Under the pieces are notes generated by a model, which worked only from the letters and a program-made list of their open reading frames with translations, was not told where the DNA came from and did not search any database. Shown here piece after piece: positions 22,392 to 27,982 of a stretch of 64,000 nucleotides of DNA (the stretch's first letter is position 1; every line of letters begins with the position of its first letter). The position numbers and the translations under genes were made by a program. Origin of the DNA: Candidatus Nanopelagicus sp. (GTDB lineage Bacteria; Actinomycetota; Actinomycetes; Nanopelagicales; Nanopelagicaceae); NCBI GenBank assembly GCA_044353095.1, contig JBILCN010000001.1, positions 11,484 to 75,483 of the forward strand, given 5' to 3'.

Positions 22392-23717
22392 ATGAGTTTA
22401 AAGCTTTCAGTGATTGGTACCGGATACCTTGGTGCAACCCACGCCGCATGTATGGCCAGCTTAGGGTTTGAAGTTATTGGAGTTGATCTAGATCCAGCCA
22501 AGATTGATCTACTTTCGCAAGGCAAGGTTCCTTTTTATGAGCCTGATTTAGAGGATCTCCTTGCTGCACAAATTAAATCTGGCAGATTGAAATTTAGCAA
22601 AGATATATCTGATATTGCAGATTGTGATGTTCACTTTATTTGTGTTGGTACACCGCAAGTAAAAAATGGTATTGCAGCAGATTTAACATATGTAAATGGC
22701 GCAGTTGAAAGTATCGCCCCCATTATTAAATCAGGCTCCTTGGTTGTCGGAAAATCAACTGTGCCAGTTGGCACCGCCGCTAGATTGCGGGATCTATTAA
22801 TTAAAGTTAACCCAACAACTGATCTAGCTTGGAATCCAGAGTTTTTGCGCGAGGGTTTTGCAGTTGAAGATACATTGCGGCCAAATCGCTTAGTGGTTGG
22901 TACAAATAGTGATCAGGCGGAGGCAACATTAAAGATGGTTTATGCACAAAATCTAAAGGATGGAACTCCTTGGGTTCGTGCAGATCTGCCAACCTCTGAG
23001 TTAGTTAAGGTGGCAGCTAATTCATTTTTAGCTACCAAGATCTCATTTATAAATGCCATGGCGGAGATCTGTGAGGCAGCTGGCGGTGATGTAACTGTGT
23101 TGGCAAAGGCGATTGGTTATGACCCTCGAATTGGAAATAGATTTTTACAAGCTGGTATTGGTTTTGGTGGTGGCTGTCTGCCAAAGGATATCCGTGCATT
23201 TATGGCAAGGGCTGAGGAGCTTGGTGCCCAGCAAGCACTTGAATTCTTAAAAGAGATTGATTCAATCAACTTAAGGGCAAGACAGCGCATCATCGAGTTA
23301 GTGCGTAAAGATTTAGCTGATGATTTAACTGGTAAAAAAGTTGCAATTTTAGGAGCAGCATTTAAACCAGATAGTGATGATGTGCGTGATTCACCGGCAC
23401 TAGATATTGCAGCACAAATACAAGCAGCTGGCGCTGTTGTTACTGTTCATGATCCTAAAGCGATTGCAAATGCGCAAAAGCGTTTTCCAGCACTTAAATT
23501 TGCTGAAAGTATTGAGGCCACCTTCACGGATGCAGAGATTGTTTTGCATTTAACTGAGTGGAAAATTTACCGCGAGTTAGATCCGACCAAGATGAAGTCA
23601 CTAGTGAAAAATCCAATCATGATCGATGGCCGTAATGCGCTAGACCGATCAGCCTGGCGAAAAGCTGGTTGGAAGTTTCGAGCCCTTGGTGTTTCAGAAA
23701 ACGCACAAATTGCATGA
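22392..23717 (+). CDS. ugd: UDP-glucose/GDP-mannose 6-dehydrogenase
   Basis: GTGYLG, CVGTP, KSTVPVGT, NPEFLREG, GFGGGCLPKD, AFKPDSDDVRDSP. Confidence 0.93.
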   Translation: MSLKLSVIGTGYLGATHAACMASLGFEVIGVDLDPAKIDLLSQGKVPFYEPDLEDLLAAQIKSGRLKFSKDISDIADCDVHFICVGTPQVKNGIAADLTYVNGAVESIAPIIKSGSLVVGKSTVPVGTAARLRDLLIKVNPTTDLAWNPEFLREGFAVEDTLRPNRLVVGTNSDQAEATLKMVYAQNLKDGTPWVRADLPTSELVKVAANSFLATKISFINAMAEICEAAGGDVTVLAKAIGYDPRIGNRFLQAGIGFGGGCLPKDIRAFMARAEELGAQQALEFLKEIDSINLRARQRIIELVRKDLADDLTGKKVAILGAAFKPDSDDVRDSPALDIAAQIQAAGAVVTVHDPKAIANAQKRFPALKFAESIEATFTDAEIVLHLTEWKIYRELDPTKMKSLVKNPIMIDGRNALDRSAWRKAGWKFRALGVSENAQIA

Positions 23718-24106
23718 GTGATCAAATAGATCAATTACTTGCATTAAAAACATGGGCAATTGTAGGTTTAAGCAATAACCCAGATCGTGCTGCCTTTGGT
23801 GTAGCTAAGTTGTTAATTGAAAAAGGCCACACCATAATCCCTATTCACCCTAAGGCTGAACAAGTGCATGGCCAGACTGGTTATGCCAAGTTAAGTCAGG
23901 TTCCAGTAAAGATTGATGTGGTTGATATTTTTGTAAACTCTGAATTAGCTGGCGCAGTTGTAAATGAAGCGATTGAAGTTGGCGCGCAAGGCGTTTGGTT
24001 GCAATTAGATGTAATTGATGAAGGCGCAATTGCCCGGGCCAAAGATGCTGGATTGTTAGCGGTTATGAATCGTTGCCCGGCGATTGAATACAAAAAGCGA
24101 GGTTAA
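23714..24106 (+). CDS. CoA-binding protein (YccU-like)
   Basis: AIVGLSNNPDR, PIHP, VDIF, VWLQL, MNRCP. ATGA overlap with ugd. Confidence 0.88.
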   Translation: MSDQIDQLLALKTWAIVGLSNNPDRAAFGVAKLLIEKGHTIIPIHPKAEQVHGQTGYAKLSQVPVKIDVVDIFVNSELAGAVVNEAIEVGAQGVWLQLDVIDEGAIARAKDAGLLAVMNRCPAIEYKKRG

Positions 24107-24924
24107 TCCTCGATCTCACCGCTGTAATACTGCTGTGCATGAATAATCTCAGTAAGAAGTGTCTCCAGTGAATCACCTGTTACTCCAACAATCTTTAATC
24201 TTTGGTCAAATTTCAATCTTGAATTACGTGCCATCAAGTGCAGATATGGCCGGTAATCATCACTACTTGGATCAGTATGTAATAACCCGGTTACAACATA
24301 CTTATCATTTGAATTGCTCTGCCCTAATGGCAGATCTAAAACTGCACGCAGATACTGCTCGAAGTAATTGGTATTTGAATTAATCTCAGTTGCAAAAGAG
24401 GATTTTGGATTAAGCCAGTTTATGCCCTTTAATTTTTGATAATCATCGGCATCAACTATCAGTTCAATACCACCAGTTAATCCCAACTCCTCAATCAAAT
24501 TTAATGCAGAAATAGCAATTGTGACCGCTTGCTCCTCAGTAACACCTGGAGCAGGTGAGATTAGTAAATCCTTACTTTGCAATGAGATTGGCCAGATTGC
24601 ATGTTGGGCATGTGCACTTCTTGCCGCCAAAATTATTAACTGCTCTGATTTTTCTTCAGAGATTTCAATAGTTGAAATAGCGGCCAGGACCTTGCTAGAT
24701 GGATAAATTGCTGCACCACTTTGTTCAGCTACCTTGATAGCTCCTTGCGAAACCATCGAAGGTTCGACACAAATTAACTGGCAATCTTTGCCAAATTCAA
24801 TCAATTGCTCCGCTGAAAACTTCTCGTTGCTTGCCTTAATTGCAACACCTAGCCGACTTGCTGCTTCACTTAACTGTGAAATAGCCAGCGCCGGTGCAAT
24901 TACGCCAATTACTGGGAAGGCCAT
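24103..24924 (-). CDS. Degenerate PurK (N5-CAIR synthase) homolog lacking the ATP-grasp core
   Basis: Retains MAFPVIG, ARS..Q...WP, SPAPG, ELGL.G, FEQYLRAVLDLPLG, YLHLMAR and HA..Y..G.I. Lacks GGGQL, GGYDGKG, NE.A.RPHNSGH and YGK..R.GRK.GH. Confidence 0.75.
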   Translation of the reverse strand: MAFPVIGVIAPALAISQLSEAASRLGVAIKASNEKFSAEQLIEFGKDCQLICVEPSMVSQGAIKVAEQSGAAIYPSSKVLAAISTIEISEEKSEQLIILAARSAHAQHAIWPISLQSKDLLISPAPGVTEEQAVTIAISALNLIEELGLTGGIELIVDADDYQKLKGINWLNPKSSFATEINSNTNYFEQYLRAVLDLPLGQSNSNDKYVVTGLLHTDPSSDDYRPYLHLMARNSRLKFDQRLKIVGVTGDSLETLLTEIIHAQQYYSGEIED

Positions 24925-24944
24925 GTAATAAGGTTACCCGCATA

Positions 24945-25556
24945 ATGGCAAAGTTAATTCTGGCATCGTCATCACCTTCAAGGCTTCGGTTACTACAAAG
25001 CTCTGGCATCTCACCGCAAGTATTAGTCAGCGGGGTTGATGAAGAGTCTCCCGAGATAACTGCGCTCTCACCGAGTGAGATGGTCATTGCATTAGCTATT
25101 TTAAAAGCACATACCGTTAAGGAATTAGCACCAGAAAACTCATTGATACTTGGTTGTGATTCAACTTTCGAGTACAACGGTCAATCATTGGGTAAGCCAG
25201 AGAGCAAAGAGAATGCAATCACTAGATGTAAATTGCTAAGTGGTAAGTATGGCTATTTACACACTGGACATTGCCTAATTGATCTTAAGCAAGGTATTGA
25301 AGTTACGGAGCGATCAACAGCTAGAGTGCAATTTGCCCAGTTGAGTGATGCTGAGATTATTGATTATGTAGAAACGGATGAGCCACTTAACTTGGCTGGT
25401 GGTTTTTCATTAGATGGATTAAGTGCACCTTTTATTACAAGTATTGAGGGCGACCCCAGTGGAATAATTGGTTTATCACTTCCATTGCTACGAAAGATGA
25501 TTATTTCACTCGGCTATACCTGGCCACAACTTAAAATAGCCAACCCGTTAGGATAA
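24945..25556 (+). CDS. maf: Maf-family nucleoside triphosphate pyrophosphatase
   Basis: LILASSSPSR, VDE, GCDS, GKPE, AGGF.LDG, GLSL. Confidence 0.9.
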   Translation: MAKLILASSSPSRLRLLQSSGISPQVLVSGVDEESPEITALSPSEMVIALAILKAHTVKELAPENSLILGCDSTFEYNGQSLGKPESKENAITRCKLLSGKYGYLHTGHCLIDLKQGIEVTERSTARVQFAQLSDAEIIDYVETDEPLNLAGGFSLDGLSAPFITSIEGDPSGIIGLSLPLLRKMIISLGYTWPQLKIANPLG

Positions 25557-25565
25557 GTTTAAGAC

Positions 25566-26375
25566 ATGAGCGATCTTTATAAAGACCCGATTGGTACCGC
25601 CGAAGCAGCAGCAAAAGTAATCGCCAAGAAAACTGGTAAAGCAAAACATCAAGTTGCACTTGTAATGGGTTCGGGTTGGATTTCAGCAGCTGATGCACTT
25701 GGTAAGCCAACACATGAGTTTGCAGTAACAGAACTACCAGGCTTTCCTGCACCAACAGTTGTAGGGCATGGTGGAAAAGTTAGGTCTTATGAATTAGCTG
25801 GCGGCGTTAACGCACTAGTTTTTCTAGGTCGCACACATTTTTATGAGGGTTTAGGTATGGAGCCAGTAGCACACGCGGCTCGCACAGCGGTTAAAAGTGG
25901 CTGTAAGGCTGTTGTATTAACAAATGCATGTGGTGGAATAAATACTGAATACAAAGTAGGACAACCTGTCTTAATTAAAGATCACATCTCATTAACTGCT
26001 GCATCACCTTTGATTGGCGCTGATTTTGTGGACTTAACAGATTTGTATAGCAAGCGATTACGAGAGTTAGTTAAGGCAGCTGATCCTTCATTAGCTGAGG
26101 GCGTTTACGTGCATTGGCGTGGACCGTCATATGAAACACCAGCTGAGATTCGAATGATGCGAACACTTGGTGCAGATTTAGTTGGTATGTCCACTGTGCC
26201 TGAAGCAATTGCAGCACATGCATTAGGTGCTGAAATCTTAGGTATCTCACTTGTAACAAATGCTGCCGCTGGCGTAACTGGTGAAAAGTTAAATCATGAA
26301 GAGGTAATTGCAGCTGGTAAAGCAGCCGCAGATCGTATGGGTAAATTATTAGCCACCATCTTGCCTAAGTTGTGA
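25566..26375 (+). CDS. punA: Purine nucleoside phosphorylase (trimeric type)
   Basis: VMGSGW, GRTHFYEG, TNACGG, GPSYETPAE, VGMSTVPEA, TNAAAG. Confidence 0.92.
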   Translation: MSDLYKDPIGTAEAAAKVIAKKTGKAKHQVALVMGSGWISAADALGKPTHEFAVTELPGFPAPTVVGHGGKVRSYELAGGVNALVFLGRTHFYEGLGMEPVAHAARTAVKSGCKAVVLTNACGGINTEYKVGQPVLIKDHISLTAASPLIGADFVDLTDLYSKRLRELVKAADPSLAEGVYVHWRGPSYETPAEIRMMRTLGADLVGMSTVPEAIAAHALGAEILGISLVTNAAAGVTGEKLNHEEVIAAGKAAADRMGKLLATILPKL

Positions 26376-27982
26376 TCTCCGAAGATTTAAAGAAAGAGGT
26401 TACGGATTGGATTAAAAATGATCCAGATCCAAAGACTGCAGCACAGTTACAACAATGGCTAAGTGAAGGTAATGAAAATCAATTAAAACAATGCTTTAAC
26501 GGCTTTTTACAATTTGGTACCGCTGGACTTCGTGGACCAATTGGTCCTGGCCCCTCTTGCATGAACCGTGCTGTAGTAAGCAGAACCGCAACTGGTATTG
26601 CTGAATTTATGAAGGCGCACAACATGTCATCGGTAGTAATTGGCCGGGATGCAAGGCATGGATCAGCTGATTTTGAAAAAGAGTCCGCTGAAATATTTGC
26701 AGGTGCTGGCTTGAAAACTTATGTTCTGCCTCGAGAGTTACCAACGCCAGTTTTAGCATACGCAGTTAAATCATTAAAGGTTGATGTTGGAGTCATAGTA
26801 ACGGCTAGCCACAATCCAGCAACTGATAATGGCTACAAGGTTTATTTGGGTGGAAAAGTATCAGGCATAACTTTTAATGGCTCCCAATTACTCTCACCCG
26901 TTGATAATGAGATATCAGATTTCATTGCCAAGGCAGATTTAAATCCAAAACGAGATCAAAATTATCAGATCGCTTCCGAGTCGGTAATTGATGATTACAT
27001 TAAATCTGTAGTTGCGTTATGCAGTACGCCAAATCAATTAAAGATTATCTACACCCCACTGCATGGAGTCGGTGCTGAAGTATTTCTTAAAATCTTTAAA
27101 GCGGCGGGTTTGGCACAGCCAATTGTGGTCACTGAACAAGCACAACCAGATCCAGATTTCCCGACTACACCTTTTCCAAATCCAGAAGAGGCGGGAGCTA
27201 TTGATTTAGCGATTGCATACGCCAAGCGAGAAAATGCTGATTTAGTAATTGCCAATGACCCCGATGCGGATCGATGTGCAATCGCAGTTAATGATGGTGG
27301 CTGGCGCATGCTTCGCGGTGATGAGGTAGGCGCCCTGATTGGTAGGTACTTACTTGATAAGAGTGGTGCCAATAATCAAGTCTTTGCCAACTCTTTAGTT
27401 TCATCATCTTTACTTAGTGAAATTGCGAAAAGTTCTGGTATTAAATTCGCGCAAACTTTGACGGGTTTTAAGTGGATATCAAAGGTTTCAAATCTAACCT
27501 TTGGTTACGAAGAGGCGCTTGGTTACTGCATTGATCCAAAAAATGTAAATGATAAGGATGGAATAAGTGCGGCTCTATTACTTGCTCAAATCGCTGGTGA
27601 GTTGAAATCAGCTGGATCTAGTATTGCGAATTACCTAGATCAAATCGGCCAAAAGTATGGATTTCACGTTACCGAGCAGATTTCAATTCGCGTAAGTGAT
27701 TTAGCTGTGATTGATCAGTTATTAAATAAATTCAGCACAAACCCACCACAGATAATTGGTGGATCAACTTTAATTTCCAGTGAGGATTTATCTAAATCAC
27801 CAGATTTTGCAACTGCTGGGGTTCGATCTTTTTATGAGGATGGAGTTCGAGTTATTGTGCGACCAAGTGGTACTGAACCAAAACTAAAGTGCTATATCGA
27901 AGTAGTTGATAAAGTTAAAGCAACAGCGCAGCTTCGATGTGCGCAGATTAAAGAGGAGCTAACCGCTACTCTGCGGAGATAG
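26372..27982 (+). CDS. Phospho-sugar mutase (phosphomannomutase/phosphopentomutase-like)
   Basis: [37 protein letters not shown]. Confidence 0.9.

Follow-up and report, generated by a model that had tools for sequence, protein, structure and literature searches.

The 64,000-nucleotide stretch of Candidatus Nanopelagicus sp. DNA analyzed here (assembly GCA_044353095.1, contig JBILCN010000001.1, positions 11,484 to 75,483 of the forward strand; hereafter the window) contains, at positions 24103-24924 on the minus strand, an open reading frame (ORF) of 273 codons derived from purK, the gene for N5-carboxyaminoimidazole ribonucleotide (N5-CAIR) synthetase. We put at roughly 0.72 the probability that its product, hereafter the relic, is a retained PurK-derived pseudoenzyme acting by binding. 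Its sequence shows it to be incapable of the PurK reaction by the known mechanism, and its genome holds no pathway for it to serve; it probably fulfils a further, hitherto undescribed function other than catalysis in this very abundant freshwater bacterium. An earlier reading of the DNA alone (the original prediction) had preferred a retained pseudoenzyme to random decay, with a role as scaffold, ligand sensor or regulator, and had proposed a structure prediction, an estimate of dN/dS (nonsynonymous to synonymous substitution rates, ω) across orthologs, and a genome search for purE and a second full-length purK as checks.

The frame starts with ATG and contains no internal stops, and a TAA in the same frame, four codons before this start, fixes the N-terminus; the intact ORF free of stops and frameshifts that was first described is, therefore, borne out. 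By sequence, homology to PurK is weak though statistically real: the NCBIfam PurK model NF004680 matches at E 3e-12 (46 bits, short of its cut-off of 327), TIGR01161 gives 32 bits (short of its cut-off of 318), PurK chains from the PDB match at E 4e-4, and a Pfam scan of the protein called no domain, ATP-grasp included. The relic is colinear with full-length PurKs of Nanopelagicaceae (367-375 residues) from the N-terminal M-x-F-P-x-x-G through the C-terminal SGEIxE, and is about 97 residues shorter. Full-length forms of 367-390 residues adjoin purE in most genera of the family; one of them, L033, has all canonical motifs and hits the PurK of Thermus thermophilus at E 5e-66. These alignments uphold the end-to-end colinearity with actinobacterial PurK claimed at the outset, and the motifs singled out at that time (FEQYLRAVLDLPLG, YLHLMAR and HAQQYYSGEI) are present and invariant, or nearly so, among orthologs.

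By predicted fold, the relationship to PurK is strong. An AlphaFold2 model built on a 20-sequence alignment has a predicted local distance difference test score (pLDDT) of 91.3, a predicted template modeling score (pTM) of 0.89, and no disordered segment. The top 40 Foldseek matches of this model in the PDB are all PurK, with query-based scores (TMq) of 0.77-0.81 and E-values of ~1e-16. As the alignments span the entire PurK targets, the model corresponds to the A and C domains of PurK with the lid excised. Thus, the structure prediction proposed at the outset returns a confident PurK A + C fold.

Alignment to the full-length PurKs showed how the catalytic apparatus has been dismantled. First, GxGQLARM reads IAPALAIS in the relic. 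Second, a 16-residue segment of the A domain has been deleted, and the ATP-grasp B domain (the lid), including GGYDGRG, has been deleted in frame with a net loss of ~67 residues. Third, INWLNPKSSFAT occupies the position of the Mg/phosphate motif NELAxRPHNSGH, with the upstream Glu (E154) alone retained. Fourth, the EVRPGRKxGH loop, which serves the phosphate of 5-aminoimidazole ribonucleotide (AIR), has been removed by a 9-residue deletion. The positions equivalent to GxGQL and FEHE are, moreover, variable across 13 relic orthologs. The absence of GGGQL, GGYDGKG, NE.A.RPHNSGH and GRK.GH reported from the letters alone is thus seen in the alignments as well; the loss of the B domain likewise stands, but its size had been put at roughly 90 residues, a figure nearer the total difference of 97 than the net ~67 of the excision. 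The active site of Escherichia coli PurK comprises Gln11, Glu49, Arg80, Lys120, Asp127, Glu153, Lys307, Arg313 and Lys314 (PMC3261824). Judged from motif spacing, all of these would fall in motifs lost from the relic: Gln11, an AIR contact, in GxGQL; Glu49 in the FEHE region; Arg80, Lys120, Asp127 and Glu153 in the deleted segment that includes the B domain with GGYDG(K/R)G; and Lys307, Arg313 and Lys314 in the GRK.GH loop.

The pattern of loss and retention can be read column by column. Of the 157 columns invariant in 10 full-length PurKs of the family, the relic has lost 103 through deletion or variation, every ligand-binding motif among them; five are refixed to another residue. The 49 that are kept make up three blocks, ARSxHxQxxxW, TxxxEQxLRAxLDLPLG and DxYRPYLHLxARxPxLK. 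Conversely, 15 positions are invariant in the relic and not in active PurKs, many of them within the C-terminal helix LTEIIHAQQYY. At NCBI the 273-residue protein is annotated as hypothetical, while JGI pipelines assign it the enzyme names "5-(carboxyamino)imidazole ribonucleotide synthase" or "NCAIR synthetase", both very probably incorrect.

The pathway that PurK serves is missing as well. In the 1.18 Mb genome to which the window belongs (50 contigs, 91% complete), we found no purE, purC, purH, purD, true purM or intact purK, and a search of 13 further Nanopelagicus genomes, three closed ones among them, turned up neither purE nor purC. The proposed genome search thus recovered neither a second full-length purK nor purE, and the latter, correctly noted in the original prediction as not adjacent to the relic, is not found elsewhere in this genome either. 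As candidates for a hidden second purK, the other TIGR01161 matches in the genome were rejected as weak; the best, on contig C6, is the D-alanine--D-alanine ligase Ddl, and an adjacent PurM-like frame reaches 24 bits where the cut-off is 236. These results agree with a report that de novo purine synthesis is absent from all Nanopelagicus species, which does not mention purK; the purine requirement of the genus has been recognized only recently (PMC12817590).

In a second sample of the genus (14 genomes, that of the window included), inosine monophosphate (IMP) dehydrogenase was present throughout, and an adjacent purA-purB pair was found in only five. The pair lies at C47:14082-16675 in genome G000 and was not found in, for example, one 92%-complete genome. 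Some Nanopelagicus species may, hence, be unable to turn IMP into adenosine monophosphate and may need adenine or adenosine specifically. PurA and PurB were considered as surviving partners of the relic and set aside, as the pair was not found in G048 and G074, both of which carry the relic.

The relic is not decaying: purifying selection acts on it throughout a genus in which synonymous sites have reached saturation. Of 13 same-genus genomes, 12 carry it intact, each time with 273 residues, and the codon alignment of 13 relic sequences has no gap columns. In metagenomes, about 100 clusters at 90% identity are exactly 273 residues long, some with hundreds to more than 1000 members. Under the GY+F3X4 codon model, ω is 0.10 for the relic, compared to 0.047 and 0.046 for the flanking genes and 0.047 for the active PurKs of the family; fixing it at 1 costs twice a log-likelihood difference (2ΔlnL) of 1498, and neutrality is rejected. 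Relic pairs with unsaturated dS give dN/dS values of 0.22 (dS 0.26) and 0.074 (dS 0.95). Constraint increases along the protein, with ω values of 0.15 for residues 1-93, 0.09 for residues 94-185 and 0.065 for residues 186-273, and the frame stayed open in none of 5000 neutral, substitution-only simulations to the observed divergence. The proposed dN/dS estimate thus indicates strong constraint, and the preference for a retained pseudoenzyme over random decay is sustained by the intact orthologs, the ω of 0.10, the predicted PurK fold and the positional orthology described below.

Across genera, the genes follow the order CoA_binding_2 - (purE) - purK - ... - maf; in Nanopelagicus purE has been cleanly removed from this order, which identifies the relic as the positional ortholog of purK. 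The overlap between the stop codons of the relic and the CoA_binding_2 gene (24103-24106) marks the place of purE in relatives, a scar-free removal of a gene in a streamlined genome. On the other side, the gap between the relic and the divergent maf reads GGTAACCTTA(T/A)TAC-ATG in 13 of 13 genomes despite the saturated synonymous sites. It contains the TAACCT-N6-ATG start element of the original prediction (24931-24936, minus strand), which is compatible with a leaderless actinobacterial start. The gap also holds the near-palindrome GGTAACC, with the -10-like hexamers TAACCT and TAAGGT overlapping on opposite strands, and looks like a compact bidirectional promoter; because maf shares this 20-bp element, its conservation cannot be credited to the relic alone. 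A scan of the region for E. coli-type promoters gave no match, which says little for Actinobacteria.

A profile search over 1.84 billion representative proteins showed that the relic is part of a wider set of lid-less PurKs. At least 25 clusters (50% identity) of 270-320 residues match the relic profile end to end without the lid, and about 15 further clusters of 216-229 residues hold the C-terminal two-thirds only. In every lid-less cluster that was aligned, the motifs are degenerate and the blocks retained just as in the relic. Two of these forms, P0122 (292 residues) and P0135 (273 residues), show an 8-bp overlap with an intact purE in conserved synteny. In the genus we label g4, short PurK forms adjoin purE in seven sampled genomes; purC, purM and purH are present in the g4 genomes tested, and no second intact purK was found in the four tested genomes with short forms. 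SAHRMP, which we take to be the signature of class I PurE, occurs in all four g4 PurE sequences read; a class II enzyme that would make PurK unnecessary in g4 was rejected on this ground. The seven g4 short PurKs have an ω of 0.115, against 0.036 for their purE. In all, the Nanopelagicaceae loci with lid-less PurK only (L038 in G004, L040 in G050, L046-L048, L043 and L044) combine degenerate motifs with a complete de novo pathway of purC, purM, purH and class I purE; in L043 and L044, the loci with gene calls, the PurK stop overlaps the purE start by 8 bp. Read at face value, these sequences imply that the step from AIR to carboxyaminoimidazole ribonucleotide (CAIR) would proceed free of ATP in these free-living freshwater bacteria.

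Since the reading frames of several lid-less PurKs run into that of an intact class I purE in full-pathway genomes, the lid was lost before the pathway. The likely order is active PurK with PurE, lid-less PurK with PurE, lid-less PurK alone, and finally further truncation or loss. The form in genus g13 (P0133; L021, L023, L045) has only 218 residues, also lacks the A domain, adjoins maf and the purine nucleoside phosphorylase (PNP) gene as in Nanopelagicus, and occurs in genomes without purE or purC. The g13 and Nanopelagicus forms make up one clade in the tree (support 100/98); for g4 and g5, where long-branch effects were flagged, the tree does not separate a single from multiple origins of the lid-less forms. 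In a further genus, g18, neither purE nor purC was found in 12 genomes and the relic is mostly missing, with weak matches in two of the 12; this genus provides a natural contrast for what the relic is needed for.

What, then, might the relic do? Two-hybrid studies in E. coli and Pseudomonas aeruginosa identify PurK as a hub of a purinosome-like network, in which it contacts PurE, PurC and other enzymes, and disturbing these contacts perturbs nucleotide pools (PMC10912719; bioRxiv 10.1101/2025.07.15.664858). The catalytic step of PurK is also dispensable under some conditions: class I PurE can work without PurK at high CO2, the class I enzyme occurs in methanogens and other archaea that have no PurK, and overexpression of PurE rescues purK mutants of E. 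coli (PMC3261824; PMC10912719). We suggest that the relic works through binding rather than catalysis, and that, most likely, a scaffold or hub function in protein interaction, already present in the ancestral PurK, persists in it. Such a function would first have made a lid-less PurK worth keeping beside purE in the related genera, would account for the continued coupling of lid-less PurK to purE wherever CO2 can replace the chemistry of PurK, and would have outlived the purine pathway in Nanopelagicus. The interaction surfaces are probably the three blocks common to active PurKs and the C-terminal helix that gained constraint. In Nanopelagicus the partner would have to be something else, with Maf, PunA, the phospho-sugar mutase and GuaB (IMP dehydrogenase) as candidates. 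We offer as a tentative and rather doubtful extension that a catalysis-independent second function of PurK was selected in its own right, permitted repeated or early loss of the lid with purE kept, and alone preserved the relic in Nanopelagicus. If this were true, some of the most abundant freshwater bacteria would have an ATP-free AIR-to-CAIR step, and lid-less PurKs would be a new family of non-catalytic adaptors with a partner outside purine synthesis.

Several observations weigh against retention for binding. The relic evolves about twice as fast as its neighbors. Purine auxotrophs of genus g18 mostly do without it, and purine auxotrophy as such therefore does not entail a need for it. The candidate partners Maf, PunA, the mutase and GuaB are nominated by location or presence alone, and obligate partnership with PurA or PurB is excluded, since their genes occur patchily in a genus that keeps the relic. 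No entry for the relic gene appears in the acI metatranscriptome paper and its supplements (PMC5574706). Finally, the relic retains many conserved polar residues, which leaves room for new catalysis.

This last point is the core of one alternative, namely that the relic still catalyzes a reaction, a novel one that needs no ATP and takes place in the A/C cleft; its substrate might be a purine nucleoside or nucleotide linked to the maf-punA salvage genes. It would account for the strong purifying selection, for the head-to-head arrangement with a salvage operon over an invariant 20-bp control region, and for a set of invariant polar residues (R102, H105, Q107, E154, E189, Q190, R193, D197, R225, Y227, H229, R233, K238 and H262). 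We nevertheless consider it unlikely, since to our knowledge no ATP-grasp protein is catalytic once its lid is gone, ancestral purK-maf synteny accounts for the position next to maf, and the Nanopelagicus and g13 forms represent a single evolutionary event. Moreover, the retained residues are conserved in active PurKs too, and none is among the published ligand contacts (PMC3261824).

It is also quite unlikely, in our estimate, that lid-less PurK assists class I PurE without ATP, by presenting AIR or CO2 or by stabilizing the octamer, and that the Nanopelagicus copy is a recent, fading leftover of this role. The 8-bp overlap with purE in several complete-pathway lineages without another purK would suit such a helper, as would the activity of class I PurE without PurK at high CO2 (PMC3261824; PMC10912719). 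However, Nanopelagicus has been without purE throughout its radiation, over which dS is saturated, and yet its ω of 0.10 is no higher than the 0.115 of the purE-coupled forms; the AIR-contact motifs are, furthermore, degenerate in those forms too.

A constraint on the DNA or RNA rather than the protein is very improbable. With a gap of just 20 invariant bp, the maf promoter must indeed sit in or beside the 5′ end of the relic gene, and the region might be kept for it or for an antisense or structured RNA, with the open frame incidental; but the constraint is codon-wise (dN << dS) across all 273 codons, is strongest in the 3′ third far from maf (ω 0.065 against 0.15 in the 5′ third), and conserves amino-acid motifs although synonymous sites are saturated. 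A slowly decaying pseudogene, open by chance, is scarcely credible: the relic is the fastest-evolving gene of its neighborhood (49-55% amino-acid identity against 63-88%), has lost its catalytic parts and is mostly missing from a related auxotrophic genus, but the rejection of ω = 1, the absence of indels and stops in 13 species at 26-45% nucleotide divergence, the failure of every neutral simulation to stay open, the confident predicted fold, and the clean removal of purE from the same streamlined genome all speak against it.

Table 1. Features of the PurK relic and its surroundings in the window.
Feature	Position	Strand	Evidence or remarks
Lid-less PurK relic, coding sequence (273 residues + stop)	24103..24924	-	PurK homology, purifying selection
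A-domain remnant, residues 1-93	24646..24924	-	Alignments; ω 0.15; confidently folded in model
Eroded GxGQL, residues 5-16	24877-24912	-	Alignments
Degenerate FEHE equivalent	24754-24774	-	Alignments
B-domain excision junction, residues 81-96	24637..24684	-	Alignments; Foldseek alignments spanning whole ~385-residue PurK targets
ARSxHxQxxxW block (R102, S103, H105, Q107, W111), common to active PurKs	24592..24624	-	Ortholog conservation
INWLNPKSSFAT replacing NELAxRPHNSGH	24388..24423	-	Alignments
TxxxEQxLRAxLDLPLG block, common to active PurKs	24322..24372	-	Ortholog conservation
DDYRPYLHLMARNxxLKF block, then EVRPGRKxGH deletion site	24184..24261	-	Alignments, conservation
C-terminal helix LTEIIHAQQYYSGEI, relic-only invariant positions	24106..24168	-	In most constrained third, ω 0.065
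Short terminator-like hairpin and T-run over relic stop codon	24098..24112	-	Weak: two such sites in region vs 1.1 expected
Convergent CoA_binding_2 gene	23714..24106	+	Stop overlaps that of the relic; purE lies between both genes in relatives
Divergent intergenic region, relic/maf (20 bp)	24925..24944	.	Almost invariant in 13 genomes
TAACCT, 6 nt upstream of relic ATG	24931-24936	-	Invariant in 13/13 same-genus genomes
Divergent maf, purine nucleoside phosphorylase, phospho-sugar mutase	24945..27982	+	maf and PNP by Pfam; mutase by reading of sequence

The persistence of the relic as a probable PurK-derived pseudoenzyme has several implications. Genomes as small as 1.2 Mb are commonly assumed to carry nothing that does not earn its place, so a dead enzyme of constant length under selection in a purine auxotroph points to a hitherto unknown function of the PurK scaffold. 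The relic is, in effect, a natural experiment that splits the catalysis of PurK from the binding role suggested by the two-hybrid data. Lid-less PurK beside class I purE in related genomes suggests that the ATP-consuming step of PurK is bypassed in abundant freshwater bacteria, a point that bears on the evolution of the purine pathway and on PurK as a drug target. On a practical level, the NCAIR synthetase label can mislead metabolic reconstructions, hide purine auxotrophy and misguide the design of culture media for Nanopelagicus.

Comparison with known systems places the relic as follows. With PurK itself (TIGR01161/NF004680; PDB 1B6S, 3AW8, 3AX6, 3R5H and 9ZOI), it has descent, locus, the A + C fold and the three blocks in common, whereas it is without the lid, GxGQL, FEHE, GGYDGRG, NE.A.RPHNSGH and GRK.GH, and its genome is without purE and the de novo pathway. 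The lid-less PurKs of other Nanopelagicaceae genera (275-320 residues; for example P0122, P0135, L022, L024, L029 and L031) show the same excision, degenerate motifs and blocks under a similar ω of 0.115; they differ from the relic in being coupled to an intact class I purE, in having purC, purM and purH in the genome, and in keeping remnants of the G..GH loop. Methanogens and other archaea with class I PurE and no PurK show that PurK catalysis is dispensable if CO2 or bicarbonate forms N5-CAIR non-enzymatically (PMC3261824); these archaea are simply without purK, whereas Nanopelagicus keeps a non-catalytic derivative while PurE is also gone. The PurK hub of E. coli and P. aeruginosa resembles the role proposed for the relic in its protein binding; unlike the relic, the hub proteins are active enzymes, with de novo partners that are missing in Nanopelagicus. 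TTLL12 (PMC3520985) is likewise an ATP-grasp homolog retained without the catalysis of its family, but it is eukaryotic, multi-domain and keeps the grasp architecture. In the literature searched, we found no description of a lid-less or inactive PurK. Thus, although pseudoenzymes and PurK are both well known, a PurK pseudoenzyme kept after the loss of the whole pathway, within a family-wide radiation of lid-less forms, is new.

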